Of a DNA stretch of 64,000 bases, positions 1,141-61,237 are shown piece after piece; position 1 is the stretch's first letter, and every line of letters starts with the position of its first letter. Where the stretch lies: IMG/VR virus record IMGVR_UViG_3300029448_000016, one strand, 5' to 3'. Below the pieces are notes generated by a model. That model was given only the letters and a program-made list of their open reading frames with translations, did no database searches and was not told the DNA's origin. The stretch comes from an uncultured virus (IMG/VR IMGVR_UViG_3300029448_000016). Lineage: Duplodnaviria; Heunggongvirae; Uroviricota; Caudoviricetes. Made by a program: the position numbers and the translations under genes.

Positions 1141-1142
1141 AT

Positions 1143-1331: not shown

Positions 1332-1333
1332 AT

Positions 1334-1492: not shown

Positions 1493-1569
1493 TGCCATAC
1501 GGTAAAGGTACATACGGAAAAAAAGTAGGAAGACCAAAAAAGAAAAAAACTAAAAAGAGGAAGAAATAG
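1492..1569 (+). CDS. Basic micropeptide MPYGKGTYGKKVGRPKKKKTKKRKK (AT-hook-like GRP)
   Basis: Hand-translated; coupled to both neighbours (TAATG and TAGTG overlaps). Confidence 0.6.
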   Translation: MPYGKGTYGKKVGRPKKKKTKKRKK

Positions 1570-1853: not shown

Positions 1854-1864
1854 GCTTTATATAC
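1852..1864 (+). promoter_or_regulatory. Archaeal BRE-TATA promoter (AAGCTTTATATAC)
   Basis: Matches the AAAVCTTTATATA motif recurring upstream of operons in this window. Confidence 0.6.
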
Positions 1865-1970
1865 ATAGGGCTTCTAAATATGTATGGGCACCCGCCACAG
1901 GGCCATTGCTCCACAGGTTACTTAACGCAAGTGCCATTGTGGGTACCCCAATATATGGAGATATCAACAT

Positions 1971-2399: not shown

Positions 2400-2731
2400 A
2401 CGTAGAGGAATACGAGCAAAGATTAAAGCAGAGGGTTGGAGAAGCTGAATATGGACGTCATAAAGAGCTTGTCCGCCTTCTTGCGCGCAATCTTGCTCTT
2501 GAAGACATACTGTGGGAAGAAATTCTTGTATGTATTCGGGATGTTAACGCTAGAACAGAGCTCTTGCGCCAAAGAAATACAATCGTTAAGGACATTCATA
2601 CTGAATTCCGAGCGTTAAACATTGAAGTGCCAACTACTGTAGAGAAGAATACTGAAGCATTCGCTTCGTTTTTAGGAGATTTATCCGATGAAGGAAAACC
2701 AAAAGAGTCTAAACAGCCTGCTGACAGGTAA
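2396..2731 (+). CDS. Putative terminase small subunit
   Basis: Helical 111-aa ORF immediately upstream of and overlapping TerL; positional inference. Confidence 0.5.
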   Translation: MNVEEYEQRLKQRVGEAEYGRHKELVRLLARNLALEDILWEEILVCIRDVNARTELLRQRNTIVKDIHTEFRALNIEVPTTVEKNTEAFASFLGDLSDEGKPKESKQPADR

Positions 2732-4367
2732 AGGTGGATTAGATTCAAGAAAGTTAGAGGATATCTTTAAAAGTTGCAGACAAGATTCTGCAAAAATGAG
2801 AAAATTGATTAGGGCATTCTGTACTTCATACCTAATTGATGGAAAACAACGACCATTACTACTCAGACCTTTACAAGAAGACATAGTTTTAGAATGTCTA
2901 ATGTTAAGAGATGACGATAAACAAACCAAATTAGCAATATTAGCTCCACGAGGCAGTGGGAAATCGTTCGCATTGTCTGTAGCGGTGACTATATATATGT
3001 TTTTTAATAGATTTAGAGATTTAGTATTTATATTGGCTCCTACTGAGGACCAAGCAGCTCTAATCTTTAACTACGTCTATAGACATTTTGCTGATAACAG
3101 TTTTTTAAACGGCTTAGTTAAGAATTATCGCTTTCATAACAAGCCCAACATAACACTTAAGGGGGGCACAATAATGCGTAGAGCTCCATTGGCGCCTAGT
3201 AACCAAGGACAAGCTATCCGTGGACAACACCCTACGTTCCTCGTAGTGGACGAATCTCCACTAATTGATGATAAACTATTCATTGACAATGTAGAGCCTG
3301 CTATTGTCGCTAATAAGGCACCTTTTATTAATCTAGGCACTCCTAAGTCAAAAGATAATCATATGTATAAGTATCTTTATGACGATGGTTATGCTGATAC
3401 ATTTAAAAGATTACACTATACATGGAGAGACGCCGTAAAGAAAGGGGATGCTTATTCAGCTCCCTACACTGATGAAGAAATGTTAGATAAAATGACTGAA
3501 TGGGGAGAAGATTCCGTCTACTGGAGGACAGAATATGAATGTGAGTTTGTAGAGTCTGTATCGAACGTATTTAATCCAGAAAAAATAAAGGCGTGTTACG
3601 ATGATTACATACTTAATAGACTTGATGGGGATGGAGACAAGAGAGGAGGCAATATTACTGTTGGTGTTGACATTGGCAAATCTGTTAACTCTACTGTCAT
3701 TAGTGCATGGTCCCTTGAAAAGTCTGACGAAGAAAATATTGCTAGACTTATATACATTGAAGAAATCAATGCCAGAACTGGTGGACATGATATTCCATAC
3801 CAACGTAGACGTATCATGGACGTTACCAACCAGCTTGGTGCTAATCGGCTCATTGTTGATTGTACTGGTATGGGTGGTGCGGTTGAACATGATTTACGGT
3901 TGGCGTGTTTAGAAACTGACGTTCATTTTGTTGCGTTTGTTTTTACAGGAGGACCAAAAGGGACAAAAACACAAATGTATAGAGATTTTACTTCTTATAT
4001 ACAACAAGGACGTGTAAAAGTACCCAATCCAAAAGGATTAGAACAACCAGAAGCTAAACTAATTAATAAATGGACTAAAGAACATATTGATTTAGAATAT
4101 ACTATGGATGCAGCTAATAAGACAGAAAAAATATCTGCACCGTCAGGTAGACATGATGATTATTGTGATAGTACTGCAATGGCTTTACATGCTACTTTAA
4201 GTATGTTACCAATGTCAGGTAACTTTGCACAATCAATAGTGTCACGTCCAATTAATAAAAATTATTCAGCATCGGTAGGAAATCGCGGAACTCACTCAGG
4301 GGTTTCACTTTTCACCACTTCTCAACGAAAACATACACTAAACAAACGCGGGCTAAGGGGAATCTAA
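2688..4367 (+). CDS. terL: Terminase large subunit
   Basis: Walker A APRGSGKS, Walker B LVVDES, coupling motif LGTP, nuclease motifs VGVDIGK and HDDYCDS. Confidence 0.95.
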   Translation: MKENQKSLNSLLTGKGGLDSRKLEDIFKSCRQDSAKMRKLIRAFCTSYLIDGKQRPLLLRPLQEDIVLECLMLRDDDKQTKLAILAPRGSGKSFALSVAVTIYMFFNRFRDLVFILAPTEDQAALIFNYVYRHFADNSFLNGLVKNYRFHNKPNITLKGGTIMRRAPLAPSNQGQAIRGQHPTFLVVDESPLIDDKLFIDNVEPAIVANKAPFINLGTPKSKDNHMYKYLYDDGYADTFKRLHYTWRDAVKKGDAYSAPYTDEEMLDKMTEWGEDSVYWRTEYECEFVESVSNVFNPEKIKACYDDYILNRLDGDGDKRGGNITVGVDIGKSVNSTVISAWSLEKSDEENIARLIYIEEINARTGGHDIPYQRRRIMDVTNQLGANRLIVDCTGMGGAVEHDLRLACLETDVHFVAFVFTGGPKGTKTQMYRDFTSYIQQGRVKVPNPKGLEQPEAKLINKWTKEHIDLEYTMDAANKTEKISAPSGRHDDYCDSTAMALHATLSMLPMSGNFAQSIVSRPINKNYSASVGNRGTHSGVSLFTTSQRKHTLNKRGLRGI

Positions 4368-10951: not shown

Positions 10952-13705
10952 ATGGCCAGATTTAGTAATGTATTAAAGAGTATGCCTCACAACGCCGTTA
11001 ACAGGAGAGCACAATCTTCTGGTACACAAGGTACACAAGGTATCCAAGGTAAACAAGGTACTACCGGTGGAGGTGGTGGCGGAGGTACTCAAGGAACTCA
11101 AGGTAGACAAGGAACTACTGGTGGTCAAGGAACTCAAGGTAGACAAGGAACTACTGGTGGTCAAGGTACTCAAGGAAGACAAGGAACTACTGGCTCACAA
11201 GGAACTCAAGGTAGACAAGGAACTACTGGTGGACAAGGTACACAAGGTAGACAAGGAACTACAGGTAGTCAAGGTACACAAGGAACTACTGGCGCACAAG
11301 GAACACAGGGTAGACAAGGTACACAAGGTATTCAAGGCAAACAAGGTACTACAGGTAGTCAAGGAACTCAAGGAAGACAAGGAACAACTGGTTCTCAAGG
11401 TACACAGGGTAGACAAGGTACACAAGGTATTCAAGGTAAACAAGGAACTACAGGTAGTCAAGGTACACAAGGAACTACTGGCGCACAAGGAACACAAGGG
11501 CGTCAAGGTACACAAGGTAAACAAGGGACATTAGGTCTTTTTGGTGGAAACAGTATTGAATTTAATTATAGTAGTTTTGATATTACCGCTGGTTCTCCGG
11601 GACAAACTAATTTTGGATTTAATATTGCATTACCCGGTGGTGGAGGTGTGCCTAATTACGGTTTAATTTCTAAAGTAGGAATATCTGATTTTGATATTAA
11701 TACTACTGACGTCAGTGATTGGGTGGACTCACTCGATGATGGTACTGGTGCAGTAAGAGGACATTTAAGAATTTTTAGAACTAACGACTCAGATGAATTC
11801 GTTACTTTTAATATTACAGGAGCAAATGTTGCTGGTGGAGCAGGGACTACAGCTTATGAAGAAGTACAAGTACAGTTTGTTGATAGTAATGGTACTTTTA
11901 GTAATGGTGATGATTGTGTTATTAGTTTTGTACAAGCTGGAGCTCAGGGCACACAAGGTGTCCAAGGTAAACAGGGTACAACTGGTGGAGGAGGCGGTGG
12001 TGGTTCTCAAGGAACACAAGGTAGACAAGGAACACAAGGAACTACAGGAGCGCAAGGTACACAAGGAACTACAGGAGCTCAAGGTATTCAGGGTAAACAA
12101 GGTGTTCAAGGAGTTCAAGGAAAACAAGGAACACAAGGAACTACAGGAGCGCAAGGTACACAAGGAACTACAGGAGCTCAAGGTATTCAGGGTAAACAAG
12201 GAATACAAGGTACAACTGGTGCAGCTTCTACAGTAGCTGGTCCTCAAGGAACTCAAGGAACTACAGGAGCCCAAGGCATTCAGGGTAAACAAGGAATACA
12301 AGGAAAACAAGGTACACAAGGTAGACAAGGTACTACTGGAGAGGATTCCACAGTGGTTGGTCCTCAAGGTACACAAGGTAGACAAGGTACTACTGGTGCT
12401 ACAGGTTCTCAAGGAACCCAAGGAATACAAGGTAAACAAGGTACTCAGGGTATACAAGGTAAACAAGGTATTCAAGGTAATACTGGTGGCGGTGGTGGAG
12501 GAGGTACTCAAGGTACTCAAGGTCGTCAAGGAACACAAGGAACTACAGGAGCGCAAGGTACACAAGGAACTACAGGAGCACAAGGTATTCAGGGTAAACA
12601 AGGAATACAAGGTACAACTGGTGCAGATTCTACAGTAGCTGGTCCTCAAGGAACTCAAGGCCGTCAAGGTGTACAAGGAAAACAAGGTACTCAAGGTACA
12701 CAAGGAATACAAGGTAAACAAGGAACACAAGGTAGACAAGGAGTTACTGGTGCAGATTCTACAGTAGTTGGTCCTCAAGGTACTCAGGGTATACAAGGTA
12801 AACAAGGTATTCAAGGTAATACTGGTGGCGGTGGTGGAGGAGGTTCACAAGGAACTCAAGGCCGTCAAGGTGTACAAGGAAAACAAGGTAAACAAGGAAC
12901 ACAAGGAACTACAGGTTTACAAGGAACACAAGGTAGACAAGGAGTTACTGGTGCAGATTCTACTGTTCCGGGACCAGTTGGTAATCAGGGAATTCAAGGT
13001 AAACAAGGACGTGTAGGTGACCAAGGTACACAAGGAAGACAAGGTACTCAGGGTATACAAGGTAAACAAGGTATTCAAGGTAATACTGGTGGCGGTGGTG
13101 GAGGAGGTTCTCAAGGAACTCAAGGCCGTCAAGGTACTACTGGTTCACAAGGTACACAAGGTAGACAAGGAGTTACTGGTGCAGATTCTACTGTTCCGGG
13201 ACCAGTTGGTAATCAGGGAATTCAAGGTAAACAAGGACGTGTAGGTGACCAAGGTACACAAGGAAGACAAGGTACACAAGGTAGACAGGGTGTACAAGGA
13301 AAACAAGGTTCATCCGGTGGAGGAGGCGGTGGTGGTTCTCAAGGAACTCAAGGCCGCCAAGGTGTACAAGGTAAACAGGGAACTACAGGAAGTACTGGTT
13401 CAGGTGGTTCTACAGGAAGTCAAGGTACACAAGGAAAACAAGGTACGACTGGTACTGGTAACCAAGGTACACAAGGAAAACAAGGACAAACTGGTGCAAC
13501 TGGTGGTGGTGGTGGTGGTGGAGGAACTACTATTTCACACGTAGGTGCAGGTGGTTCGGCTTTATTTGGTGCAGCTCCAGTAACTTATGTACCTTCTGGT
13601 GCTCCAGTAGAAATGTATGATATGGCAACCGTAGGAGTACCAAATGGATATTTAACCGCGTCTGTAGGAGGAGCAACGCGTGCTTGGCCATCTTGGTCAC
13701 CATAA
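10952..13705 (+). CDS. Collagen-like (Gly-X-Gln) fibre protein with an internal globular domain
   Basis: Long GTQ/GRQ/GKQ/GIQ triplet runs, poly-Gly hinges and a non-repetitive domain at about aa 195-330. Confidence 0.85.
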   Translation: MARFSNVLKSMPHNAVNRRAQSSGTQGTQGIQGKQGTTGGGGGGGTQGTQGRQGTTGGQGTQGRQGTTGGQGTQGRQGTTGSQGTQGRQGTTGGQGTQGRQGTTGSQGTQGTTGAQGTQGRQGTQGIQGKQGTTGSQGTQGRQGTTGSQGTQGRQGTQGIQGKQGTTGSQGTQGTTGAQGTQGRQGTQGKQGTLGLFGGNSIEFNYSSFDITAGSPGQTNFGFNIALPGGGGVPNYGLISKVGISDFDINTTDVSDWVDSLDDGTGAVRGHLRIFRTNDSDEFVTFNITGANVAGGAGTTAYEEVQVQFVDSNGTFSNGDDCVISFVQAGAQGTQGVQGKQGTTGGGGGGGSQGTQGRQGTQGTTGAQGTQGTTGAQGIQGKQGVQGVQGKQGTQGTTGAQGTQGTTGAQGIQGKQGIQGTTGAASTVAGPQGTQGTTGAQGIQGKQGIQGKQGTQGRQGTTGEDSTVVGPQGTQGRQGTTGATGSQGTQGIQGKQGTQGIQGKQGIQGNTGGGGGGGTQGTQGRQGTQGTTGAQGTQGTTGAQGIQGKQGIQGTTGADSTVAGPQGTQGRQGVQGKQGTQGTQGIQGKQGTQGRQGVTGADSTVVGPQGTQGIQGKQGIQGNTGGGGGGGSQGTQGRQGVQGKQGKQGTQGTTGLQGTQGRQGVTGADSTVPGPVGNQGIQGKQGRVGDQGTQGRQGTQGIQGKQGIQGNTGGGGGGGSQGTQGRQGTTGSQGTQGRQGVTGADSTVPGPVGNQGIQGKQGRVGDQGTQGRQGTQGRQGVQGKQGSSGGGGGGGSQGTQGRQGVQGKQGTTGSTGSGGSTGSQGTQGKQGTTGTGNQGTQGKQGQTGATGGGGGGGGTTISHVGAGGSALFGAAPVTYVPSGAPVEMYDMATVGVPNGYLTASVGGATRAWPSWSP

Positions 13706-47246: not shown

Positions 47247-47414
47247 TTAATCTAATATATCCACTTGAACTTTCTTGATGAGGTAATGTCCATCATCATT
47301 CTGGAACCAAACTACATTGTCGCCTGAGTCCATGCTCATATCTTCCAAAATTACATCTGGAATATATATCGATTTATATTCACTTATTCTTTTTATACTA
47401 CTTACTTGTTTCAT
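47247..47414 (-). CDS. AbrB/MazE/SpoVT-family DNA-binding protein (55 aa)
   Basis: Hand-translated MKQVSSIKRISEYKSIYIPDVILEDMSMDSGDNVVWFQNDDGHYLIKKV...; ATGA overlap with the WYL gene. Confidence 0.7.
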   Translation of the reverse strand: MKQVSSIKRISEYKSIYIPDVILEDMSMDSGDNVVWFQNDDGHYLIKKVQVDILD

Positions 47415-47725
47415 TTTACCACCAATCTATCTAATCTATATGCTCTCACATGTTGTTTATGCTGAGAAGTATACTGTTTTAGATTGTATCTGTTGTCTTT
47501 TCCTACTACATAGAAGTTACCTTCTGAAGACATTCTAATATCTTCCGGTAGGATATTCCTTACAGAGTCACTGTCTGAACTGTGCTTCCATGAAGCAAAG
47601 TTAAATTGTGTTCTGTTTTCAGGGTTGTATCTAATACTTACCTGTTTGTGCTGACCTGTCTTCTGATAATGCTTTACAGCATCCATGAGACTGTTGATTT
47701 GTTCTGTTCTATTCATTTTAATCAC
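47411..47725 (-). CDS. Stand-alone WYL-domain protein
   Basis: VSIRY...RNILP...FYVVGKD...RAYRLDRL; TATA box at 47751-47758. Confidence 0.7.
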   Translation of the reverse strand: MIKMNRTEQINSLMDAVKHYQKTGQHKQVSIRYNPENRTQFNFASWKHSSDSDSVRNILPEDIRMSSEGNFYVVGKDNRYNLKQYTSQHKQHVRAYRLDRLVVK

Positions 47726-47936
47726 TGTAATTTAACCAAAACCACCTCCCTATATAAAGGTTATGGTTATGTAAACTGAGAGTTGTATAGCGTATACTCT
47801 CAGTTGGTCCCGTAAAGGGATTTCTAATGGGATTATGTCCATTATTTTTTATCTGCACATCTCGTGCAATAAGCTCGTCCGTCGTAGCTATGAAAAATTG
47901 CTCGACTAAAACAAGCTGGGCATTGTGTAAATGTTT

Positions 47937-49506: not shown

Positions 49507-49641
49507 TGTTGCCTCATTTAGCTAACATAAGGTTAGTATAGAGCACCTTAAAGAATGCTTTATTAGTCATGCTCTATAAACCATGCTATATTATATATCC
49601 CTTTAGAGATATATAAAGCTTTGCTAAATGGGGCTTAATGC

Positions 49642-50646: not shown

Positions 50647-50702
50647 ATTATCAATTCCGTTTCATTATAATTCAATATATATCAAATAGTATATAAAGCT
50701 TT

Positions 50703-50841
50703 TGGTGCACGAACTGAGAGCGGCTTCTCATAACCTTTCATCGCTATGCGACGTTCTCGGTTGTATAACTGTCCTACTCTCTTTACATTATATAAAGCGT
50801 GGCCTGTATACAGTTGAGATTCAAAACTCAATCGTTCGTGC
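50703..50841 (-). ncRNA. tRNA-like cloverleaf ending in ACCA (non-canonical)
   Basis: 8-bp acceptor GCACGAAC/GTTCGTGC plus ACCA; stacked TGAGA/TCTCA arm; TTGAG/CTCAA and TGTATA/TATACA arms; no TTC loop. Confidence 0.35.
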
Positions 50842-51006: not shown

Positions 51007-53124
51007 TCATACTTTTATTACCCTTCTTATTATTTTACTAACTGTGCCGGATAGTTCAGCAGTGTCCTCAATGATTACATAGTTCTTAAACATCTCTCTC
51101 ATAGCTGACTCACGTGCTCCAGTAATACCTAATTCTATTATGTTCCAACCTTGACCTTCTAAATGAGACACTACTTTCTTAACATGAGGAACTCCAACAT
51201 GATACCGGTAATCTTTAGCTGATGGTTCACCGTCTGATATAACAATCATAAGTTTATTACTACCCATTGATGGTGACTCAGCTTTGACTCTCTCGGCTGA
51301 TGCTAAGATAGCCATACCATCTCGGTTCTCGGAACGTGCTCTCATAGCACCAATAGCTTTGATATCATTTTGATAGGTTGGTGACCAGTAACAAGACATG
51401 TTTGTCTCACCGGTGCCATCCCAATCGTATCCGTCGGCTGTATGACCGAACACCCATAGGTTGAGGGCTTGATTATCTTTTAAGGCTTCTCGTAATGCTA
51501 AGGCAGTCTGACGTGCTTTAGCCATCTTATATGAACCCATACTACCTGACTCGTCAACTAAGAGACACACGTCTAATGGTTTGTCTTCATCTATAATAGT
51601 ATTCTTGAATAAGTCTGGCCTACCGAGAGGTATTTTATGTAACATCTTCTTGTCTAACTTACCTCTTCGTTGGTTACGAATAGTATATTTGTTAGTATTA
51701 CCAAAGAGTTGTATACGTCTTTTTAGTTGACCAATGGCTGGTTTCATACGAGCTAAGTCTTTGTCATAACCGAAGTTACCATCTTCATTACTACGTTGGT
51801 TACGCCATGTTACTTTAGTTCCTTTCCTTAAACCGAGAGCTTTACTAGTATCCCACTTTTCCTCAGAATACTCAGTATCTTCTAACTCTTTGATTTGTTT
51901 ATCTAAATAAGAATCAATATCTGACATGCCTTTAGCGTAATCAGCTAACTCTTTAGGCATACTTGCCTCACCATCTCGAACTGTTGAACGAACTGAGTGT
52001 CTTCTTTCATACTCTACGTCTAATTTAATATCTTCTATAAGTTTATCCATCATCTTACCTTTAACTTCTTCAGTTAATGCATCCTCACCACCCCAGTCGT
52101 TGATGATTGACTCATACTTTTCAGCAGCTCGACGCTCAGCTTCTTCTTTCGGCGACTCATCTGATGCTTCAGACTTAGCTAAATCTTTAGCCAACTGAAC
52201 CATATACTCATACACTGCTTGTATTGCAACGAGACTGGACGCTCGGTCTGTATATGCTGGAGCTAAGGCTCTAGCAAAGAACTGAATATGTTTAGCATGT
52301 TTCTTTTTACGCTCAGCATCTAAAGCTGAGGGAAACCTAACTAAAGATAATAGTGTATTCAAAACATTACCGAACTCACTGTCACCCTCAGCCATCTTTT
52401 CACCATGCTTCTCAAAGTAATGGGTTTTAACTTTTTCGATGTAACTAGTAAAACCACCATGTGTTTTAGCTAACTGAGACTCTATATACTCATCTTCGAT
52501 TATGTTACCAATATTGTGTAACAAACTCTGTTGCCATGTCAAGAGGTCTTTGTCTCTACCATAGGTGCGTTCCCAACTAAGTAATGGTTTACTGTGAACT
52601 AAATGTAACTTCTCGTGTATAGCTAGTCCGGCTACTACATCTAACTTATCATCATTATCCTCTAACAGAGAACCGTCAACATATATGAGCCCACGATTAA
52701 TACTAGAGTAACTACTATCAGTTGAGTAGTTTAGAGTATGCTTCACTGTTGGGTCTACAACTTTACAAAGAGAATCTAAATGTCTTTTATTCTTTAACAT
52801 TCTAGTCTTCTTATCTGACTGAGATGAGGAATGACCCCACATAGAGGTCATAGCACTAACGCCTCTGTTCCACCATGAACCACCACTACCCCACGTATAA
52901 CCTGAGGTGCGACCATAAAGGTCACCACTGGCTGAGACAGTTGGTGCAGTTGAACTATAAGCAGTTGCTACTGCTGGGCTAATGAATGGGTCGACTGATT
53001 TATATTTGATACCACATGCTTTACAGTTACCATGACCATCGTCATCAGTCCAGTCATCACATGCGTCACAGAAGTCATCCTCTGTGTCCTCAGCCCACTC
53101 GTCTATTGAATGTCCGTAATCCAT
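51007..53124 (-). CDS. VWA-domain protein (CobT-like) with N-terminal Zn ribbon and HExxH motif
   Basis: MIDAS DESGSM and ISDG; HEKLH; CDAC/CKAC. Confidence 0.88.
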   Translation of the reverse strand: MDYGHSIDEWAEDTEDDFCDACDDWTDDDGHGNCKACGIKYKSVDPFISPAVATAYSSTAPTVSASGDLYGRTSGYTWGSGGSWWNRGVSAMTSMWGHSSSQSDKKTRMLKNKRHLDSLCKVVDPTVKHTLNYSTDSSYSSINRGLIYVDGSLLEDNDDKLDVVAGLAIHEKLHLVHSKPLLSWERTYGRDKDLLTWQQSLLHNIGNIIEDEYIESQLAKTHGGFTSYIEKVKTHYFEKHGEKMAEGDSEFGNVLNTLLSLVRFPSALDAERKKKHAKHIQFFARALAPAYTDRASSLVAIQAVYEYMVQLAKDLAKSEASDESPKEEAERRAAEKYESIINDWGGEDALTEEVKGKMMDKLIEDIKLDVEYERRHSVRSTVRDGEASMPKELADYAKGMSDIDSYLDKQIKELEDTEYSEEKWDTSKALGLRKGTKVTWRNQRSNEDGNFGYDKDLARMKPAIGQLKRRIQLFGNTNKYTIRNQRRGKLDKKMLHKIPLGRPDLFKNTIIDEDKPLDVCLLVDESGSMGSYKMAKARQTALALREALKDNQALNLWVFGHTADGYDWDGTGETNMSCYWSPTYQNDIKAIGAMRARSENRDGMAILASAERVKAESPSMGSNKLMIVISDGEPSAKDYRYHVGVPHVKKVVSHLEGQGWNIIELGITGARESAMREMFKNYVIIEDTAELSGTVSKIIRRVIKV

Positions 53125-53570
53125 TGTTCTACCTTTTTTACTTCATCTTCTTCTTCAGCTATGAACTTGAACTGAAAACATTCAAGAGTTCTCTTAGCTG
53201 AACCTACACTACAATTATATATAAACATATCTTCAGCTGAGACTAACTGGTGAGCTAACTTAGTAGCTTCGTTCTTACCCATAGTTGGTCTATCTGGAAG
53301 AATTAAATCTTCTTGATTGACTATTCTTCTTTTGTATGCACCGATGTGTCTACCATTGATATCAGTCTCGGGGAACACATCTTGAATGATGCGTGAACAC
53401 ATGGCTGGTTTGAATCCACTGAGAATTAATATCTTAGCCAAACCATGCCAGTATGTGTGTTTTACTCTACTCATAAATATACTCCGGTTCTCGGTTATCA
53501 AAGTCTGAGACGAGCTGAGAAAGGATGCCATATATAATACTCTCTTCGTATGAGTCACCCATAGGTTCAA
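53103..53570 (-). CDS. Hypothetical protein (true start may be 53474)
   Basis: Track ORF. Confidence 0.55.
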   Translation of the reverse strand: MNLWVTHTKRVLYMASFLSSSQTLITENRSIFMSRVKHTYWHGLAKILILSGFKPAMCSRIIQDVFPETDINGRHIGAYKRRIVNQEDLILPDRPTMGKNEATKLAHQLVSAEDMFIYNCSVGSAKRTLECFQFKFIAEEEDEVKKVEQWITDIQ

Positions 53571-53639
53571 AGGTCGTGAAGTAGTCAGCTAAGACACTGA
53601 ACTCTTCTAAGGTTAAACCTACTACGAACTTAGGCACTC

Positions 53640-54596
53640 TTAGTCCCCCATTGATTGAATGACCTGTATAACTCTGACACGTTCTGAGTCATCACCAGCT
53701 TGAACTGGGTAGAACGGTAGACAGGTGTGTTTGAGTGCTTCGATTAAACTCATGCCGTCAACTACTAACTCTGAGACTGCAAGACACATACGTGTTGAGA
53801 CTGCTGTAGTTAGTTCGTCTGAGTTGTGTAAGTCGCGAACTCGCTTAGCAAAGTCTACAATCTTTTCAGCACTGTATTTGTCCAGCTGAGGGTTACGAAT
53901 CATAATTAATTCCATCTCTTTCTTCATAGGTAGGTATTCTAACTCATAGATACCACCAGTGAATCTATCTTTCCATGCTCGGTCTAAGTCATGAGATGCA
54001 CCGAGATACTCTCTACCTATATTAGCAGTAGCGTAAAAGAATGCTTTCTTATTGACTGAGACACTGTCAGCGTCTTCACTCTCATCAAGAGCTAAATACT
54101 TTTGACCATCTAAAACTGGCATAAGAATGTTAGCAAGGTCACCTGTTCGGTCACGAGTAACCTCATCTAACATAATGAAGGAATTACTTTGGATTGCGTT
54201 AACAAACCGAGAAGGCTTGAACCACGTTCCTGCTTCCTTATCATATTTAGTATCACCCAGCAACTTAGCTGAGGGATTCATAGTATCACCAAAGTTAAAA
54301 GAGTAAAACTCTTTGTTGGTAATACCAGCTAATATCTTACCGAGACTAGACTTACCACAACCGGATGGTCCGGTGATGAGGATGTTCTTACCTCGATATA
54401 TATTGCGTAACATTGTATAGAAAGTAATATTGTCAGCAAACTTAAACTCTTCAGGTATCTGAACTGAGCCTTTAAGCTTAGACATGACTGTCTCTTTCTC
54501 AACTACTGGTTCCGGTTCACTGGCCGGTGCCTCTTCTATCTCGGGAGTATCTGACATTAAGTCATCAATTCCTCTGTGTCGGTATTCTTCACTCAT
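53640..54596 (-). CDS. MoxR/CbbQ/CobS-type AAA+ ATPase
   Basis: GPSGCGKS, MLDEV, ATAN, LDRAWKDRF and STR; start set at 54596 from TATA spacing (54620-54627). Confidence 0.9.
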   Translation of the reverse strand: MSEEYRHRGIDDLMSDTPEIEEAPASEPEPVVEKETVMSKLKGSVQIPEEFKFADNITFYTMLRNIYRGKNILITGPSGCGKSSLGKILAGITNKEFYSFNFGDTMNPSAKLLGDTKYDKEAGTWFKPSRFVNAIQSNSFIMLDEVTRDRTGDLANILMPVLDGQKYLALDESEDADSVSVNKKAFFYATANIGREYLGASHDLDRAWKDRFTGGIYELEYLPMKKEMELIMIRNPQLDKYSAEKIVDFAKRVRDLHNSDELTTAVSTRMCLAVSELVVDGMSLIEALKHTCLPFYPVQAGDDSERVRVIQVIQSMGD

Positions 54597-54644
54597 TGTT
54601 GTATCCATAGTGTTTAGGGTATTTAAAGGTTTCCCTATTCCTTC

Positions 54645-54989
54645 TCAGTTCGCCCTCCCACGTCTGATGAGAGTTCTGTCAACTCTGGACTTATCGTATC
54701 CATAGGTTCTCTTTCCGTGTATTCCGGACGAGGTGCCTTTGACTTCATATTTGCGAACTGTGTTTGTAATCTTATTTACATCTTCAGGTTCCATTGTGCT
54801 GAGAGCGTCAATGAACTTTCCTAAGTTCTGACTCACAGACCAAGCGTTATCCTCTACATTATCAAATGAAGCGGAGAGGAATTCTCTCAACACAGTGAAA
54901 CGATTATCTTTAATTGACTGCACACTTAACAAAGGAACTCTGTCAGTATGCTGAGTCATGAAGTTATTGAACTTCTCTATTGGGTTCAT
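54645..54989 (-). CDS. Hypothetical protein
   Basis: Track ORF. Confidence 0.6.
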   Translation of the reverse strand: MNPIEKFNNFMTQHTDRVPLLSVQSIKDNRFTVLREFLSASFDNVEDNAWSVSQNLGKFIDALSTMEPEDVNKITNTVRKYEVKGTSSGIHGKRTYGYDKSRVDRTLIRRGRAN

Positions 54990-55095
54990 AGTCCACCTTC
55001 TATATGAAAGTTTACTAAACAGTGTTCACAACATGATGCATTTATTTCATGTCCACCGTTATCAGCCCAAGAATATTCACCACAGTCTGAACAAA

Positions 55096-55386
55096 TCATT
55101 GTTTCCTCACTGTAACAAATGTAGCGTTCTTAGTTTGGTTGTTTACTTTCTGAGACAACCATTTGTCTATACCTATTTCATGTATGTAATCTACTGTGTC
55201 TGAGTAGACACCGTAAGTGAGACAGTGATGTGGTTTCGGAGCGTGTTCGAAATACTTCTCAGTTGCTCTAATCTTTTTGGCTTTAATTGTGGAACCATCT
55301 ACAGTAGAGGTTCTAGTCATCAACTGTTGTAGTTGACGTGGCGTTAATTGTTTTAGCGTTGCAGCTAATTGGTCGACTTTTGTCAT
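55096..55386 (-). CDS. Hypothetical protein (leaderless, MTKVDQL...)
   Basis: Promoter AAACCTTTATATAC at 55408-55421 lies about 22 nt before ATG 55386. Confidence 0.6.
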   Translation of the reverse strand: MTKVDQLAATLKQLTPRQLQQLMTRTSTVDGSTIKAKKIRATEKYFEHAPKPHHCLTYGVYSDTVDYIHEIGIDKWLSQKVNNQTKNATFVTVRKQ

Positions 55387-55490
55387 CTTATTCAGATAGT
55401 ATAGAGGGTATATAAAGGTTTCCCCTCTTGAACTGAGAGCCCAGCACGAAAAATGAACTGAGTATAAAAAACGGGGGGCTTTTTCATGCA

Positions 55491-55503
55491 AAACCTTATA
55501 TAG
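55491..55503 (+). promoter_or_regulatory. Divergent BRE-TATA promoter firing into non-coding DNA
   Basis: AAACCTTATATAG; no downstream ORF. Confidence 0.5.
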
Positions 55504-55578
55504 TTCAGCTTCCCTATATTAACTATATTAAGATATAGATTAGTTATGCTATAGTATTGCTATAAGTAAAGAGACTAA

Positions 55579-55656
55579 TAGAGCATGCTTAGTTTAGCAC
55601 TCTTATGTCTTAGTATAGCATGGTTAGTAGAGCATGTTTAGTAGAGCATTCTTAAT
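55579..55656 (+). repeat. 14-bp periodic TAGAGCATGYTTAG repeats
   Basis: Three tandem copies at 55614-55655 plus one at 55579. Confidence 0.7.
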
Positions 55657-55960
55657 ATAGGCTTCTTAATTACTTACTCTACTTTGTCGCATGAACACAT
55701 TTCATCGCGAACTAAGAACTTAAACTGGTTTTAGTTTGGGTTTTAAGCCCTACTAAGCACTTTTATTTTCTCATTGGGGCCTACGGTTGTGCTCAGTGGA
55801 GCCCTGAGCCCGACTGAGACAGTTTCTCACTGTGCTTTACGGACCTCCCCTGTTTCTTTATAGAGCCAACTGAGCAATGTTTTCTCACCTCGCCTTACCG
55901 AGCTTTCTCACGAAGGTTTAAAGCTCAACTGAGAGCCCACGAGCTGAGTAGAGCGAAGAA

Positions 55961-55980
55961 GTTTCACTCGAGTGGAAAAA
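55961..55980. promoter_or_regulatory. Palindrome copy 5 without an adjacent TATA box
   Basis: GTTTCACTCGAGTGGAAAAA. Confidence 0.6.
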
Positions 55981-55999
55981 TAAAATTTATAAAAAATAA

Positions 56000-56220
56000 T
56001 AGGATGAGTAGGAGGATTTATTGTATACCTCCAAAGGGTTTATGCCACTACAAAGTAGAACCCTTACCAGCTTTGCATCCCTCCAGCAGTCGCTTCTCGG
56101 TTTGCGCAGTTCTGTGCCTTAGTCCGTGGCGGACTTGTTCGGCCATACTCGATTACGGAAGAGCTACTTCCATAAATATAAGGTGGGTAGTTGTTCGAGA
56201 TACCCAGCTCGATTACTGAT
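56000..56220 (-). ncRNA. Candidate structured RNA (cassette 4 trailer)
   Basis: At least five short helices and an internal duplicated motif. Confidence 0.35.
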
Positions 56221-56223
56221 TGC

Positions 56224-56556
56224 CTATTTAATTAGACCTGCCTTTTTCATAGCTTTCTTCAAATCAGCTTCTGACATCTTACCTGATGCAAGAGCAGCAA
56301 CAACAGAGTCCACTGAAGGAGCTTTGCCAGTTACTTTTCTTTGTGATTGAAGTTCATGTGTGCGTGATGCAACCATAGATGCAGTTTTATCATTTGCAGA
56401 TATTACATCGCAAATGGCAACGAGTGCATCATACTTTACACCAGTAGGATATCTTTCGGAAGTTCCTACTTTTTCTATTCCTAGTGAGTCCAATAAAGAA
56501 CTCACGAGCTTTTCATCCTTTGGTGCCCAAAGGTAATCCATCTTGGCCTTAGTCAT
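56224..56556 (-). CDS. Hypothetical protein (leaderless)
   Basis: Track ORF; AAGCTTAAATAG promoter at 56576-56587. Confidence 0.7.
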   Translation of the reverse strand: MTKAKMDYLWAPKDEKLVSSLLDSLGIEKVGTSERYPTGVKYDALVAICDVISANDKTASMVASRTHELQSQRKVTGKAPSVDSVVAALASGKMSEADLKKAMKKAGLIK

Positions 56557-56585
56557 AATATACCATCCGCTAGTGCTATTTAAGC

Positions 56586-56822
56586 TTATCCCCTGCTGAT
56601 GACTTGACGAAGTTCGTATTGCTCAAAGACGTCTGGATTAGATAATCTCACAGAGTCTGCAATTTCTTGATGGCTTCCTCGGCTACCAGTGCCAACCGGA
56701 ATCATTTCTTTATACATTCCATACTTACCGTATGGGGTAGTGCCCACTTCTACGAAGAAGTCGACTTCTTTCTCACTGCGACCCTTCCATGGAAGAGACG
56801 TCTTGGTCTGAATTCTGTTCAT
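56586..56822 (-). CDS. Hypothetical protein (leaderless)
   Basis: Track ORF; promoter at 56843-56875. Confidence 0.7.
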   Translation of the reverse strand: MNRIQTKTSLPWKGRSEKEVDFFVEVGTTPYGKYGMYKEMIPVGTGSRGSHQEIADSVRLSNPDVFEQYELRQVISRG

Positions 56823-56842
56823 GTATAACCAAGGGAGGGGGT

Positions 56843-56875
56843 CTATATAAAGGTTTTTTCACACGAGTGGAAAAA
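56843..56875 (-). promoter_or_regulatory. Palindrome + BRE-TATA promoter repeat, copy 4
   Basis: TTTTCCACTCGTGTGAAAAAACCTTTATATAG. Confidence 0.85.
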
Positions 56876-56884
56876 GATGCAACT

Positions 56885-57290
56885 TCACCCAAGGCTCTAA
56901 TTAGAATTTAAAGCCTACCTTGGGGAGCGGTTGCCTGAGGGCGCGACAATCTTCATAGGTAGCGCCACACGTGGGGTGACCTGTCGCCAGTCAAAAGCCG
57001 AAGCTTCACGAAAGGCGAACACAAACAGAACAGGTGTGATGCAGCATAGCGAATACGAGAAGACATATAACAGGGACAAAGTGATTCAAAGGTGATACAT
57101 AATGTTAGCTACACGTCTTTAATCAACTAAGATGGCCATAGACCGGCAAGGGATTGGTCAGCACTGTTCAGCTAATGTTTGTTATTTTGTCTTTCGTATT
57201 TGGCGTATGGTCGATTTTGTTTCTTTGTCAGGTCACGGTGTTACAGCTGATAACTGTAAGTGAGCGGGGGTAATTTGGGCTCCCCGCTCT
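56885..57290 (-). ncRNA. Candidate ~410-nt structured ncRNA with its own promoter
   Basis: TATA at 57311-57323 with the same TTGGTTATAC initiator context as neighbouring genes but no ATG; nested long-range helices; C(UUCG)G hairpin. Confidence 0.55.
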
Positions 57291-57314
57291 GTATAACCAA
57301 TAGGGTATGCCTAT

Positions 57315-57584
57315 TTAAGCTTTGCCCCTTACAAAGTCAATTACTTCATTTGGGACTTTAGTTCCATATTTTTTAATCTCAGAGACATAGACATCACCAA
57401 GTTCGAATTCTCCGTAAGTGAAATTACTTTTCACCGCACAGAACCAACGAGCGTGAGCGTTCTTTGCTTCGTTTTCTTCGTTTTGGTATTTCTTTAATAC
57501 TCTCCATTCAAAGCCATTAGCTCCAGTCCAGACCTCGTATGGGTCGTCAGCACTACGGGATTTACCGCACATGTTTTTAGTCAT
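57315..57584 (-). CDS. Conserved phage protein (EFELGDVY motif, DUF2958-like)
   Basis: Track ORF; leaderless behind repeat copy 3. Confidence 0.7.
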   Translation of the reverse strand: MTKNMCGKSRSADDPYEVWTGANGFEWRVLKKYQNEENEAKNAHARWFCAVKSNFTYGEFELGDVYVSEIKKYGTKVPNEVIDFVRGKA

Positions 57585-57604
57585 ACAATACCAAGTGTGG
57601 GGGT

Positions 57605-57636
57605 CTATATAAAGGTTTTTTCACATGAGTGGAAAA
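57605..57636 (-). promoter_or_regulatory. Palindrome + BRE-TATA promoter repeat, copy 3
   Basis: TTTTCCACTCATGTGAAAAAACCTTTATATAG. Confidence 0.85.
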
Positions 57637-57639
57637 GGC

Positions 57640-57661
57640 GGGGGAGAGGCTCTACTCCCCC
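57640..57661 (-). terminator. GC-rich hairpin before the palindrome T-run
   Basis: GGGGGAG-N8-CTCCCCC. Confidence 0.45.
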
Positions 57662-57686
57662 TGAGGTGTCCGAAAACTTGCGAAAA

Positions 57687-57761
57687 CTATTTGCTAGCCT
57701 TTTTGATAATCTTATTTGTTTTCTTTTTCCAACTGCGTTCCAATGGTTTATCGTAGCTCAT
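57687..57761 (-). CDS. Basic micropeptide (24 aa)
   Basis: Hand-translated MSYDKPLERSWKKKTNKIIKKASK; ATGA coupled. Confidence 0.4.
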   Translation of the reverse strand: MSYDKPLERSWKKKTNKIIKKASK

Positions 57762-57874
57762 TGGTGACACCCGCAGCAAGGTGCGTCTTCACACCCGCAG
57801 AGAACAATGTAGTCCCCTGCTTCACTTATACCAGAGATGACCATGTCATCTAAAATATCCAAGATGCTCTTCAT
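57758..57874 (-). CDS. Cys-rich micro-protein with CEDAPCCGC motif (38 aa)
   Basis: Hand-translated; ATGA coupled at both ends. Confidence 0.6.
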   Translation of the reverse strand: MKSILDILDDMVISGISEAGDYIVLCGCEDAPCCGCHQ

Positions 57875-58071
57875 TCCCACACCCTCACGTTATTGTGGTG
57901 GTCTGTCAAGGGAATGTTAGCTGGGTCTTCCTTGCGTGGGTCGTCTGTTAGTCCCATGTCAATTGCTTTTAGCTGGTCTAGTAAACCAGAGTCAACTAAG
58001 TTTTTGGTTTGGGTTCTTCGGGCGGCTTTGCGGAAACGGAAGTCGTTTCTCATGTCCTGTATTTTACTCAT
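57871..58071 (-). CDS. Hypothetical protein (leaderless)
   Basis: Track ORF; promoter at 58091-58104. Confidence 0.65.
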   Translation of the reverse strand: MSKIQDMRNDFRFRKAARRTQTKNLVDSGLLDQLKAIDMGLTDDPRKEDPANIPLTDHHNNVRVWE

Positions 58072-58107
58072 ATTATACCATTGAGTGTCCCTATATAAGG
58101 GTTTCTC

Positions 58108-58218
58108 TCAGTCCCCCGTCCAGAAGGTCGCAAACATTTCTGTATCGCAATCCTCACACAGTCCACCGAATAATTCGATATCTTCCAAGCCACAGTCCTG
58201 ACACGTTTGATTAGTCAT
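58108..58218 (-). CDS. Zn-finger micro-protein MTNQTCQDCG...LCEDCD (36 aa)
   Basis: Hand-translated; leaderless behind repeat copy 2. Confidence 0.65.
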   Translation of the reverse strand: MTNQTCQDCGLEDIELFGGLCEDCDTEMFATFWTGD

Positions 58219-58238
58219 ACAATACCAAGAACACTACC

Positions 58239-58270
58239 CTATATAAAGGTTTTTTCACTTGAGTGGAAAA
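58239..58270 (-). promoter_or_regulatory. Palindrome + BRE-TATA promoter repeat, copy 2
   Basis: TTTTCCACTCAAGTGAAAAAACCTTTATATAG. Confidence 0.85.
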
Positions 58271-58520
58271 GCTGGCGCCCCTCCTAAGAGGGGGTAACCT
58301 GCGCCCAGCTGTCCTACCTCAATGGGCTGGCTCACTGGGCTGAAGATGCGTCGCTACGTTTAACGCTCGGGCGGACTTATGCCGTAGGCCCTTCGCCATC
58401 TCTTGTCAGGCGTCTTCTCTTGTCTTTACCAGTTTATTAGACTGTTGTCCTCTCACCGCTTCCAAACGGGGCGCCTACTCCTTGGGCCACCTATTTACAG
58501 AGAGCAAAGACTCATGGAAC
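58271..58520 (-). ncRNA. Candidate GC-rich structured RNA (cassette 1 trailer)
   Basis: Much higher GC than the flanks; no ORF of 60 aa or more; several helices. Confidence 0.4.
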
Positions 58521-58679
58521 TTAACCCCAGTATCCCGACGCTACACAGAACTTGTGCGTGTTGAATCTTGGGTTGTGTTTTACCATTTCACCAGACATAG
58601 CGAGTATTAGGTCCTCGCTTGCGTCATTGTCTTTTAGTATTTTTGCGATTGCTTCAAAGTGTTTTCTTGTCATAGTCAT
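58521..58679 (-). CDS. Conserved small phage protein (MTRKHF..IA...NPRF type, 52 aa)
   Basis: Hand-translated; promoter at 58699-58711. Confidence 0.7.
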   Translation of the reverse strand: MTMTRKHFEAIAKILKDNDASEDLILAMSGEMVKHNPRFNTHKFCVASGYWG

Positions 58680-58709
58680 AATATACCATAGAGTGTGCCT
58701 ATATAAGGT

Positions 58710-58856
58710 TTACGCTCTTCTCCTCCAGCGCAACATTCTCAGCAACATGCCCTGAGTTTTTATAGGTTGTTTATAAAATTCCTCAAATGTTTGTTTGCCG
58801 CCTAATTCGACGTAGTCGTGCCAGTTGTGGATTGTTTGTATTTCGTATTTGTCCAT
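58710..58856 (-). CDS. Hypothetical protein (48 aa, leaderless)
   Basis: Start moved to 58856 because the longer track start lies inside the promoter repeat. Confidence 0.6.
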   Translation of the reverse strand: MDKYEIQTIHNWHDYVELGGKQTFEEFYKQPIKTQGMLLRMLRWRRRA

Positions 58857-58875
58857 ATTATACCAACGGGTGTGC

Positions 58876-58907
58876 CTATATAAAGGTTTTTTCACACGAG
58901 TGGAAAA
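58876..58907 (-). promoter_or_regulatory. Palindrome + BRE-TATA promoter repeat, copy 1
   Basis: TTTTCCACTCGTGTGAAAAAACCTTTATATAG. Confidence 0.85.
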
Positions 58908-58910
58908 GTC

Positions 58911-59075
58911 CTACTTGAGCTGGCTTCTTTTGAAACCAGCCCACACGTGACCCTTATCCCAAATGTATTTACTACCACCTGTAGCAGGGTCATAGACTAA
59001 CCAATAGTTATTACCTCTGGCGTCTGTTCCTTTATTGATTATTTTATATCCGTCTTTGGTGTTTCTTTTTCTCAT
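58911..59075 (-). CDS. Small hypothetical protein (54 aa, leaderless)
   Basis: Hand-translated MRKRNTKDGYKIINKG...; promoter at 59096-59110. Confidence 0.65.
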   Translation of the reverse strand: MRKRNTKDGYKIINKGTDARGNNYWLVYDPATGGSKYIWDKGHVWAGFKRSQLK

Positions 59076-59104
59076 GAATTACCAATAGGGAATCCCTATA
59101 TAAA

Positions 59105-59174
59105 GCTTTCTCACCTAAGCGCTTTCTCACCTAGGCTGCTTTCTCACCCCACGCGGGTTTCTCACCCACGCAGG
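59105..59174. repeat. Four direct TTTCTCACC repeats, 16-18 bp period
   Basis: Copies start near 59107, 59123, 59140 and 59158. Confidence 0.8.
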
Positions 59175-59207
59175 TTAAAATCCCTCGTTTTGAGGGCCAT
59201 TAGGCAT

Positions 59208-59339
59208 TTATCTAAGTCTGATAAGACTATTTCTTAATGCTTTTGCATATGTTGATTTTGGTAAATTGATTTTACAATCTTCGTTTTGAAGTTTATATTT
59301 CAATGCACTAATCACGGCTATTGATGTTTTGTTATCCAT
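59208..59339 (-). CDS. Small hypothetical protein (43 aa)
   Basis: Hand-translated; GGAGGT SD. Confidence 0.5.
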   Translation of the reverse strand: MDNKTSIAVISALKYKLQNEDCKINLPKSTYAKALRNSLIRLR

Positions 59340-59549
59340 TTTAGTTACCTCCATGTTTGGGTTTGGGCTGAGAGAGCCGGAGCTCTCCCATACCCCCTAA
59401 CACGGCCTTTATTGTTGGTCGTGTATTTGGTCTATGATGTTATGTAATATGTCTAACATATAACCATAAGTTATCACATCATTGTGTCCATATCGATTCT
59501 TATTCATTTGGTCGATATCATACTTATTTAATTCTATTTCGAATTTCAC

Positions 59550-59792
59550 TTATTCACCTCCTTTTGTATTGATTCCTTCGTTTTTACCTGTCTCGAATTC
59601 TTTAACGATTGTTTGTAATCGCTCGATTACATGACGGCCGTATTTATTCAAATCATGACCCTTCATGCCGGCAGTATCTGAGAGATACATTAGTTGCCCC
59701 ATTAAATGGTGTAATGCGTTGGATTCATGATAGTTCGACCTATTCATGTCAGTTGTTGCGTATGCCCTTTTCATATATGTTTTTACGTTCAT
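59550..59792 (-). CDS. Hypothetical protein
   Basis: Track ORF. Confidence 0.6.
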   Translation of the reverse strand: MNVKTYMKRAYATTDMNRSNYHESNALHHLMGQLMYLSDTAGMKGHDLNKYGRHVIERLQTIVKEFETGKNEGINTKGGE

Positions 59793-59861
59793 ATTTTTTT
59801 TCCTATATCAGTATTTGATATTTAGTGCCCTAGCTCCGGAGAGCTAAGGTCACCTATCAGT

Positions 59862-60197
59862 TTACTTATTACCCCCGTAAGTATAACCTTTGTTACCTAT
59901 ACCGGCCATGCCTTGAAACTTTGGTTCTTTACCGTATTTCTTGACATGGTCCCAAACTAAGTTTGCTTCATGTGCTAAGCCCTCAAAAACATTATCAAAT
60001 TCAGCCATAACAATTAGGCTGATATCTTGACCCTTTTTAGGTCGGTGCTTAGATAGACGGCTTTGAGGGTCTGAGGTGATACCGTAATACACAGCTTCCT
60101 TAGTTGCCTCGCTACCGAAATCAGCATCTAGAAAATGATAGGATGTCTTTTCTTGCTGTTGGGCTAATCGATACACAAAATACTTTTGATTATTCAT
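59862..60197 (-). CDS. GIY-YIG nuclease-like protein
   Basis: FVYRL...YYGITSDPQSRLSKH...E. Confidence 0.7.
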   Translation of the reverse strand: MNNQKYFVYRLAQQQEKTSYHFLDADFGSEATKEAVYYGITSDPQSRLSKHRPKKGQDISLIVMAEFDNVFEGLAHEANLVWDHVKKYGKEPKFQGMAGIGNKGYTYGGNK

Positions 60198-60375
60198 TGA
60201 ACTCCATGTAACAATCGAAACACATTTCTACGTTATGGCTCTCATGTGTAGCCTCAACTTTATCAGTGAACAACTCAAAACAAGGCTCACAAAATATCTC
60301 TATATCACTATTAGGTAGTGACTCCTCAAATCCTATTTGGATTAACTCGCTATCGGACAAATGGTTTTTTACCAT
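60190..60375 (-). CDS. Small Zn-finger protein (CEPC...CFDC)
   Basis: Track ORF; TATA box near 60397-60404. Confidence 0.6.
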   Translation of the reverse strand: MVKNHLSDSELIQIGFEESLPNSDIEIFCEPCFELFTDKVEATHESHNVEMCFDCYMEFNE

Positions 60376-60685
60376 ATACTCAGAATAGCAACCTACTTAT
60401 AAAGATTTTAGGTCAATCCGTGCTTAGCGTTTCACTTCCTAGCTACAAAATAGATACCGTTTTATGTTTATTTTTTCTCAGTTTCTCATTAAGTATATTC
60501 TCAGTTTGTCAGCATGTGCCCCCGTCTAAAAAGAAAGGCCGCATCCTCTATTATCGTCGACTACCCCTAAAAACAAATCGAGTGAAATTTTGAAAGTCAT
60601 TATATAGCTCTATATAGGTATAGTAGATAAGCTACTACTAACAACAATAATGAGCTCTATAAAGCACTCCTCAGTTCAGGGACAG

Positions 60686-60699
60686 AAAGCCTTATATAC
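60686..60699 (+). promoter_or_regulatory. BRE-TATA promoter of the modification operon
   Basis: AAAGCCTTATATAC. Confidence 0.55.
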
Positions 60700-60742
60700 T
60701 GTCAAAGGTTAAAATTATTACCAAAAGGAGAAACTAACTTCA

Positions 60743-61237
60743 ATGACAACAAAAACGCAAAATTCCATTAAGTGGATATGTAATGAAATCAGGGATTTGC
60801 TATTAGCCAAGAACAAAGCATATGGCGATAGTGCATTAGAACCTGACAACATTTTTAGTAAGCTCGACTCAGCACAGGCTATCTGTGCACGAATCGACGA
60901 CAAGCTCAGCAGGATAAAGAATGTAGGGCTTGATGACAAAACAGAGGACACCCTTGATGACCTCATAGGATATTTAATCTTACTCAAAATCGCGAGGAGC
61001 AATGCGACAGCAAGAGCGACAGTATTCACTACGTGTAATTGCGAACATGGGTGGCATAATTGTACATGCAAAGTAGAGCTTAATACTAATGGTGATGGTA
61101 CCTTTGCTGACTATAGCGAAGGTTACGCTCCCCCGTGGAGCCATGAGGTACCTAGGGATGTTAGGGTGTTCGTTAGTGACCCCGGAGATGAGATGACTTC
61201 AATAAAAAAGAAGTCGGAGATGTGCGATAATGACTGA
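60743..61237 (+). CDS. Nucleotide-modification-associated domain protein (DUF1599/Nmad1-like)
   Basis: LLLAKNKAYGDS...RIDDKLSRI...EDTLDDLIGY. Confidence 0.75.
   Translation: MTTKTQNSIKWICNEIRDLLLAKNKAYGDSALEPDNIFSKLDSAQAICARIDDKLSRIKNVGLDDKTEDTLDDLIGYLILLKIARSNATARATVFTTCNCEHGWHNCTCKVELNTNGDGTFADYSEGYAPPWSHEVPRDVRVFVSDPGDEMTSIKKKSEMCDND

Follow-up and report, generated by a model that had tools for sequence, protein, structure and literature searches.

A pentanucleotide at promoters, in an intergenic array and across neighbouring genes of an uncultured magrovirus-like genome: a candidate activator site

The putative control region and its genome

The DNA analysed here (the window) is a stretch of 64,000 nucleotides from the uncultured tailed-virus record IMGVR_UViG_3300029448_000016, and the element in question is the word CTCAG, which recurs between 52,326 and 55,948 in a putative intergenic control region and throughout the genes beside it. 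These genes constitute the first middle operon (52326..55386, minus strand), which comprises the genes for proteins of 96 and 114 amino acids (aa), a MoxR-type AAA protein, proteins of 56 and 125 aa, and the 5′ part of a VWA gene, with 20 copies of CTCAG spread over all three frames. The operon promoter (55409..55462, minus strand) consists of a transcription factor B recognition element (BRE) and a TATA box, with CTCAG at about −21 (55,433) and −46 (55,458). Upstream of it, a divergent BRE+TATA pair (55487..55503, plus strand), which has no gene behind it and is found also in relatives of both clades (A and B), faces an AT-rich tract (55500..55700, 30% G+C) built of repeats with a 14-bp period, a repeat type kept in both clades. 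The ordered array follows at 55750..55950 (minus strand); here CTCAG, CTCGG and CTTAG words alternate with (G/A)TGAGAAA modules, with five CTCAG copies, one inverted. Finally, a palindrome, TTTCAC-N4-GTGGAAAA (55962..55980), which is a TATA-less copy of an early-promoter element, and a manA RNA (56001..56175, minus strand; RF01745, 62.1 bits, E 2e-13) border the array at the end of the early cassette. The terms "early" and "middle" are assigned from the layout, by analogy with HF2 as presented in the accessible part of PMC8707807.

The record is a single sequence of 72,195 bases whose end (68,612–72,195; G000) repeats positions 1–3,023 at 80–85% identity, which gives a genome unit of about 68.6 kb; the repeated end is probably that of a related strain joined there. 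The genome encodes terminase, portal, major capsid, PolB, RecU, eIF-1A, HSP20, a GT4 glycosyltransferase and the MoxR-type AAA protein with its CobT-type VWA partner; it bears archaeal-type BRE+TATA promoters, and its sequence occurs in seawater runs, with no RNA run among those listed. Head-tail genes are thus combined with archaeal-type replication genes and promoters, as in the Magrovirales. The genome fits the description of a magrovirus, within this order most closely that of Krittikaviridae / group E (PMC11706807); the features in common are occurrence in seawater, promoters of archaeal type and the genes for PolB, terminase, portal, major capsid, a CobT-type VWA protein and a GT4 glycosyltransferase. 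No magrovirus record was present among the 11 phage matches; no relative that would link the virus to Poseidoniales was found in genome contigs, nor was a host genome carrying the virus found. The hosts are likely archaea. No tRNA genes were found.

Excess of the word beyond codon constraint

All genes of the region lie on the minus strand, so that the word of the coding strand is CTCAG. An earlier note, made by eye on the plus strand, had reported about 27 CTGAG versus about 5 CTCAG between 52,326 and 55,948. The exact recount is 27 versus 5 (P=6e-5 for the strand split), and the ten example coordinates given there are all exact, while the expectation computed from other minus-coded DNA, 5.3 and 3.9, is slightly higher than the two to three of each assumed at the time. 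The word does run across genes and spacers, as had been noticed, 7 of the 27 sites being intergenic and 20 lying in genes (frame counts 12, 6 and 2); it peaks in the array, with five sites in 55,804–55,948, and thins sharply past the palindrome, with only two in 56,001–58,000. The proposed A/G-CTGAGA context is no more than a tendency, 19/27 sites having A or G at −1 and 14/27 having A at +5; read on the coding strand, the word prefers T before it and YY after it.

Synonymous shuffling was applied to 19 in-gene sites, the edge site at 52,326 being cut off. The expectation is 2.4 with genome codon usage and 3.7 when the region's own codons are permuted; it rises to 9.9 if the next base is kept too (0/5000 shuffles reach 19) and to 12.7 under the strictest scheme, in which the next residue is kept as well (1/5000 reaches 19). 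The enrichment therefore survives the codon-preserving check, and a codon or amino-acid artefact is ruled out by these shuffles. Among all 5-mers in all 4-kb windows, under a codon-aware model, the word is the top one of the genome (28 vs 5.0); the genome as a whole shows a mild excess (70 vs 39). In this region the coding-strand bias is 19:3, and the in-gene spacing is more even than random (coefficient of variation 0.59, P=0.006). Chance, or a codon history inherited by the clade, could appeal to the 12.7 of 19 sites expected by the strictest shuffle and to the shared ancestry of the relatives. We find this scarcely credible in view of the intergenic array, of the promoter offset and silent-site retention, the latter well above that of matched words (see below), and of the rank of the word, which tops the codon-aware scan in three of four complete clade A genomes, the overlapping TCTCA leading in the fourth.

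A fixed position upstream of promoters

CT[CG]AG starts 20–22 bp upstream of the box in 4 of 18 strict BRE+TATA boxes (50,697; 54,627, where it is inverted; 55,416; 60,691). The offset (−22 to −20) was picked after inspection, and with this choice the P value is 8e-6 on the density of the genome and 9e-4 on that of the region. Besides the operon promoter at 55,416, these are the promoter before the AAA gene (54620..54651, minus strand; inverted word at the same offset, 54,644), that of the pyrimidine-dimer glycosylase gene (50689..50718, minus strand; CTCAG at −21, 50,714) and a rightward promoter (60670..60699, plus strand; CTCAG at −21), whose word is inverted at the same offset in the relative G003. 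A fifth CTCAG promoter at 47,759, that of the 101-aa gene (47751..47780, minus strand; CTCAG at −21), is seen only with a looser TATA pattern. The earlier note had missed this promoter link, which points to a transcription factor.

The palindrome occupies the same upstream offset in 4 other of the 18 strict boxes. The earlier note had called the copy at 55,962 a terminal palindrome; it is indeed there, but as one of five, the others (56,857, 57,619, 58,253 and 58,890) standing directly before early TATA boxes. The genome has thus two repeated promoter classes, a palindrome class (4/18) and a CTCAG class (4/18), which number 26 and 22 among 166 distinct boxes of clade A. In the latter, CTCAG starts at −21 in 15 boxes and at −22 in 2, and CTGAG at −21/−20 in 5. 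The promoter copy is therefore found in either orientation; one orthologous promoter has it inverted and one relative has CTTAG instead, a variation that would be expected of a degenerate site read by a protein. Among the 66 boxes of clade B, none has the word at the promoter position and the palindrome is also absent, while [CT]TATA starts at −24 in 21. A search for host use of this promoter layout returned 42 exact-pattern matches in genome contigs, none titled Poseidoniales, a weak result given the narrow pattern.

The word in relatives and its loss in the sister clade

Enrichment was found in 13 of 17 other viral loci and is missing in 4. For a broader comparison the core of the AAA gene, readable in 98 of 99 loci, was used; thinning to <92% identity left 29 representatives of clade A and 6 of clade B. 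In the clade A set CTCAG occurs 130 times versus 15.4 expected and CTGAG 66 times versus 16.8; in the clade B set the figures are 1 versus 2.9 and 10 versus 4.1. The signal had been described as polar, and this holds for the 27:5 of its own region; across relatives both orientations are enriched, at about 2:1, and in one complete relative (G004) they stand at 11:12. Strict polarity is ruled out by this two-way enrichment, and the split seen here is the extreme of a 2:1 family bias. One pooled count of clade A includes some mis-called open reading frames in the array, and the AAA-core and box counts are used for this clade instead.

Where the early cassette ends and the array lies, the density of the word, pooled over 16 loci, climbs abruptly from 0.6 per kb to 13. 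It then decays over about 5 kb (8, 5 and <3 per kb by 5–5.5 kb). Gene by gene, enrichment amounts to 4–9 fold up to and including the entire VWA gene; the two early genes beside the array show a value of about 1, so that the zone of the family is wider than the one first delimited. In pair comparisons with an unchanged peptide, CTCAG persists in 604/604 (frame 1) and 1132/1723 (frame 2), versus about 40% for all words and 6–24% for four matched frame-2 words. For instance, the peptide NPSAK is spelt with CTCAG in 27 of 29 clade A sequences and in none of the 6 of clade B.

In the AAA gene CTAAG (83 vs 23) and CTTAG (58 vs 35) are also above expectation, and CTCGG is raised too, which suggests a degenerate site. 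The first two words, together with the mild excess over the whole genome, could be read otherwise: CTCAG or CTNAG may be a methylation or restriction target, clustered as GATC is at origins and pac sites. The earlier note had suggested such a modification target. The flank preference and the fixed promoter offset make it very unlikely, as does the lack of any methyltransferase among the 47 Pfam-scanned proteins (part of the open reading frames); furthermore, a marine methylome paper (PMC8919816) mentions neither CTNAG nor CTSAG in its main text. Similarly, the bias towards the coding strand (19:3 here, 2:1 in relatives) would suit a signal at the RNA level, CUCAG being recognized by a nuclease or an RNA-binding protein that times the middle mRNAs. 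This we hold to be extremely unlikely, given that the copies upstream of TATA boxes, in both orientations, are not transcribed from those promoters and that the reverse word is itself enriched fourfold.

The sister clade loses the word from promoters and genes together, and nearly from the array; the corresponding gap has 0–2 CTCAG in six delimited loci. Clade B keeps the TGAGAA modules and the AT-rich repeats; the pattern used also picked up the facing TATA in 3 of 7 loci. The loss of CTCAG in this clade is firm. Its replacement by another word is moderately supported: at the same place, GATAG/CTATC is the top codon-aware word of both larger records (34 vs 13.7 and 30 vs 11.3) and amounts to 143 versus 59 and 43 versus 16.5 over 7 loci, an effect which is only 2.5-fold, marginal per genome after multiple testing and without an exact match to the promoter word. 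One locus, L038, is intermediate.

A candidate activator of middle promoters

The earlier note had proposed a protein-binding signal superimposed on coding DNA. The shuffles, the conservation at silent sites and the fixed promoter position speak for it. In keeping one distance upstream of BRE and TATA, whichever way it points, the word looks like the site of an archaeal activator. We slightly favour the view that CTCAG(Y) is the site of an activator of the middle promoters, and that the array and the in-gene copies gather this protein where the middle programme starts. The protein would be viral and synthesized early, and would activate rather than repress. Bound about 21 bp upstream of TATA, it would help to load TFB/TBP at several middle promoters, while the extra copies in the array and in the first middle genes would gather it on the control region; these extra sites may work as an antenna, setting off the middle programme and possibly opening the adjoining AT-rich tract.

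Several observations weigh against this proposal. The residual 2:1 bias towards the coding strand is not predicted by a simple orientation-free site, and five promoters need five sites, so that the purpose given to the others is a guess. The conserved in-gene sites are confined to 11 columns of the AAA gene, and the 652 pairs compared lack independence; retention of the reverse word is also poorer (57% in frame 1, 31% in frame 0). Finally, searches by fold, profile and Pfam identified no binding protein.

The last early gene (56224..56556, minus strand) encodes a 110-aa protein that is a candidate binder, for which sequence and model searches gave no significant match. Like the 96-aa and 114-aa proteins, it diverges between the clades. 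Profile searches of three candidates against the PDB returned nothing significant; for the modelled 110-aa and 96-aa proteins, no structural match exceeded Z 3.9 and Foldseek gave none, and the ESM Atlas gave unnamed clusters only. Residues 7–54 of the 110-aa protein matched three MerR-like DNA-binding domains at Z 2.6–2.9, which is within noise. In most clade B loci (L016–L018, L038, L039) its gene is inverted, with the promoter on the array side.

Two other proteins were rejected as binders. The 125-aa protein, helix-turn-helix-like by eye, does not track the word, since its putative recognition stretch is the same in both clades. The 55-aa protein, which we take by eye to be AbrB-like, as we take the 101-aa protein to be WYL-like (47,247–47,716, minus strand), does not track it either, because it is 95% identical to one clade B copy; this identity suggests an exchange.

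The array, the AT-rich tract and a possible origin

The segment 55,390–55,990 is alignable across 10 loci, in the order palindrome, three to four modules that pair CTCAG with (G/A)TGAGAAA, AT-rich tract, TATA facing the tract, two CTCAG and middle promoter. Repeated sites thus adjoin an AT-rich tract, as they do at iteron origins, and the sites could be iterons of a replication origin: an initiator would bind the array and the flanking genes and melt the tract, the divergent promoter would prime synthesis, and the promoter copies would serve a secondary autoregulation. Such an origin would agree with the 14-bp repeats of the tract, with the conserved gene-less promoter that faces it and with the inverted partner of the tract 6 kb away (49,551–49,593), near the point where the enrichment fades. 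We nevertheless judge it unlikely, considering that GC skew, although confounded by gene direction, which it follows, shows no switch in this region, that the spacing of the array varies among the 10 aligned loci, and that in-gene sites kilobases away are atypical of iterons. An origin would be compatible with the activator if one protein served both.

AT-rich tracts bearing GCTCTA also stand at promoters in 49,551–49,618 and 60,590–60,690; the former, which holds the inverse of 55,611–55,667, recurs ahead of the resolvase gene in both clades. The second word of the array also occurs elsewhere: four GTGAGAAA modules are stacked before an early promoter at 59,107–59,165 (minus strand), the last of them at the BRE position. 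In viral contigs the module pattern of the array gave at least 120 matches, mostly single. At about 55,990 manA and the palindrome are set apart, in most of the aligned relatives, by an additional 80–90 bp that carry a manA-facing TATA and are absent here; the manA RNA itself is near-identical in some relatives and strongly diverged in L009 and L014.

A possible terminal repeat

The early cassette (55716..60900) shows an approximately doubled contig depth and may be a long direct terminal repeat, with a right edge between about 60.4 and 61.1 kb. Depth was derived from contigs, in pieces of exact match, of which 31 of 32 were used (out of 984), one edge-straddling piece being dropped. In four runs from four studies, the depth inside about 55.7–60.9 kb versus the left and right flanks was 77 vs 29 and 45, 48 vs 22 and 20, 288 vs 167 and 139, and 27 vs 7.5 and 7.5. 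It is 1.9–3.6 times that of the flanks in all four and approximates the sum of left and right in three, as a direct terminal repeat would give; contig depth is not copy number, however, and contig breaks coincide with the step, which begins within the intergenic region at about 55.7 kb. No site with many molecule ends was seen in these contigs, and no single record supplied two of the 22 viral loci found for the 110-aa gene. The chances that a 5-kb terminal repeat exists, with the array at its inner edge, appear about evenly balanced. In addition, most complete relatives measure 65–70.5 kb, and the longest contigs of the protein clusters P0128, P0261, P0079 and P0209 reach 73.7, 73.9, 72.1 and 82.4 kb; the first three of these come close to one unit with 5 kb added, which hints weakly at a terminal repeat.

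The earlier note had suggested terminase/pac loading, an origin or an ejection signal; any of these may apply to the array and could employ the protein proposed as activator, and the depth step lends them some help. With a repeat of this kind, the array could mark its physical end, as a signal for terminase or for end processing. The depth ratio in all four runs and the position of the step inside the intergenic region are in line with this. The early region is nevertheless more common to strains (87% with G001 over 59.1–61.1 kb), which might raise depth on its own, and the contig ends of relatives, in shorter metagenome loci, are scattered without a cluster. A signal of this type also leaves the fixed promoter offset unexplained, and about 15 kb of the circle separate the array from the terminase gene; on the whole it seems improbable. 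Alternatively, entry might proceed in two steps as in T5, the early cassette entering first, the array being the pause, and an early protein bound to the next 5 kb ratcheting in the rest and switching on the middle promoters. The abrupt beginning of the sites at the end of the early cassette, their inward decay and their even spacing in genes would suit such a scheme, and repeat region 3 of T5 also straddles the inner edge of a terminal repeat, according to the accessible part of 10.1101/866236. The scheme depends, however, on the unproven terminal repeat, and no likeness to T5 A1/A2 turned up, in searches none of which was aimed at these proteins; we give it a slim chance. A combined view, which we regard as rather unlikely, is that in a virus with a 5-kb repeat one early DNA-binding protein, its word inscribed in middle promoters, in an array where the repeat has its inner edge and at silent positions over the following 5 kb, would be the switchboard coupling the middle programme to entry or to origin firing, and that sister clades rewrote the code to another word.

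Comparison with known systems

As an activator site, CTCAG would resemble those of archaea, in which BRE and TATA are preceded, at a constant distance, by a short site (TFB-RF1, Ptr2; PMC5937170, PMC5569661) or, for GvpE, two sites lie between divergent promoters (PMC2241852), as far as the available parts of these papers describe them. It differs in that about 25 additional copies make up an array and extend across 3–5 kb of coding DNA, in that it is a word of 5–7 bp rather than a fixed-spacer dyad, and in that its binder is putative. The intergenic repeats of HF2 (classes I and II) are promoter classes with repeated upstream motifs and oppositely transcribed arms, in the portion of PMC8707807 at hand. 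They share with our region an archaeal tailed virus and a conserved bidirectional promoter with short direct repeats; unlike here, where 20 of 27 sites are in genes and the word changes between clades, their motifs are largely confined to the repeats. T5 repeat region 3, or injection stop signal, likewise places non-coding, repeat-rich DNA where an early cassette ends, in our case possibly across the inner edge of a long terminal repeat (10.1101/866236, partial text); our region differs from it in having no DnaA boxes, in that its terminal repeat and two-step entry are putative, and in that its sites extend into genes.

Motifs scattered over coding DNA, polar or clustered, are familiar from Chi, KOPS, the ram sites of RacA and parS. 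With these CTCAG shares the retention of a short word at silent positions across genes, whereas it is local (about 5 kb), polar by only about 2:1 in relatives and tied to promoters, and lacks the genome-wide strand skew, flipping at a replication landmark, of Chi and KOPS. The parts are of known kinds. For this motif, and for such parts joined in one archaeal virus whose word changes across a clade, we found no report in the literature searched, and the word "promoter" is absent from the main text of the magrovirus papers covered, PMC11706807 included; supplements, which were outside the search, may hold promoter or terminus data.

These viruses and their presumed hosts are uncultured, and the analysis provides for them a candidate operator, two classes of promoter, a contrast between clades and a region that may be an origin or terminus, all of which can be tested with synthetic DNA and purified proteins. 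It also offers a case of regulatory words held at silent positions over several kilobases of a compact viral genome. Elsewhere in the window, a collagen-like protein of QG repeats is encoded at 10,952–13,705 (plus strand), and its gene dominates raw k-mer scans.

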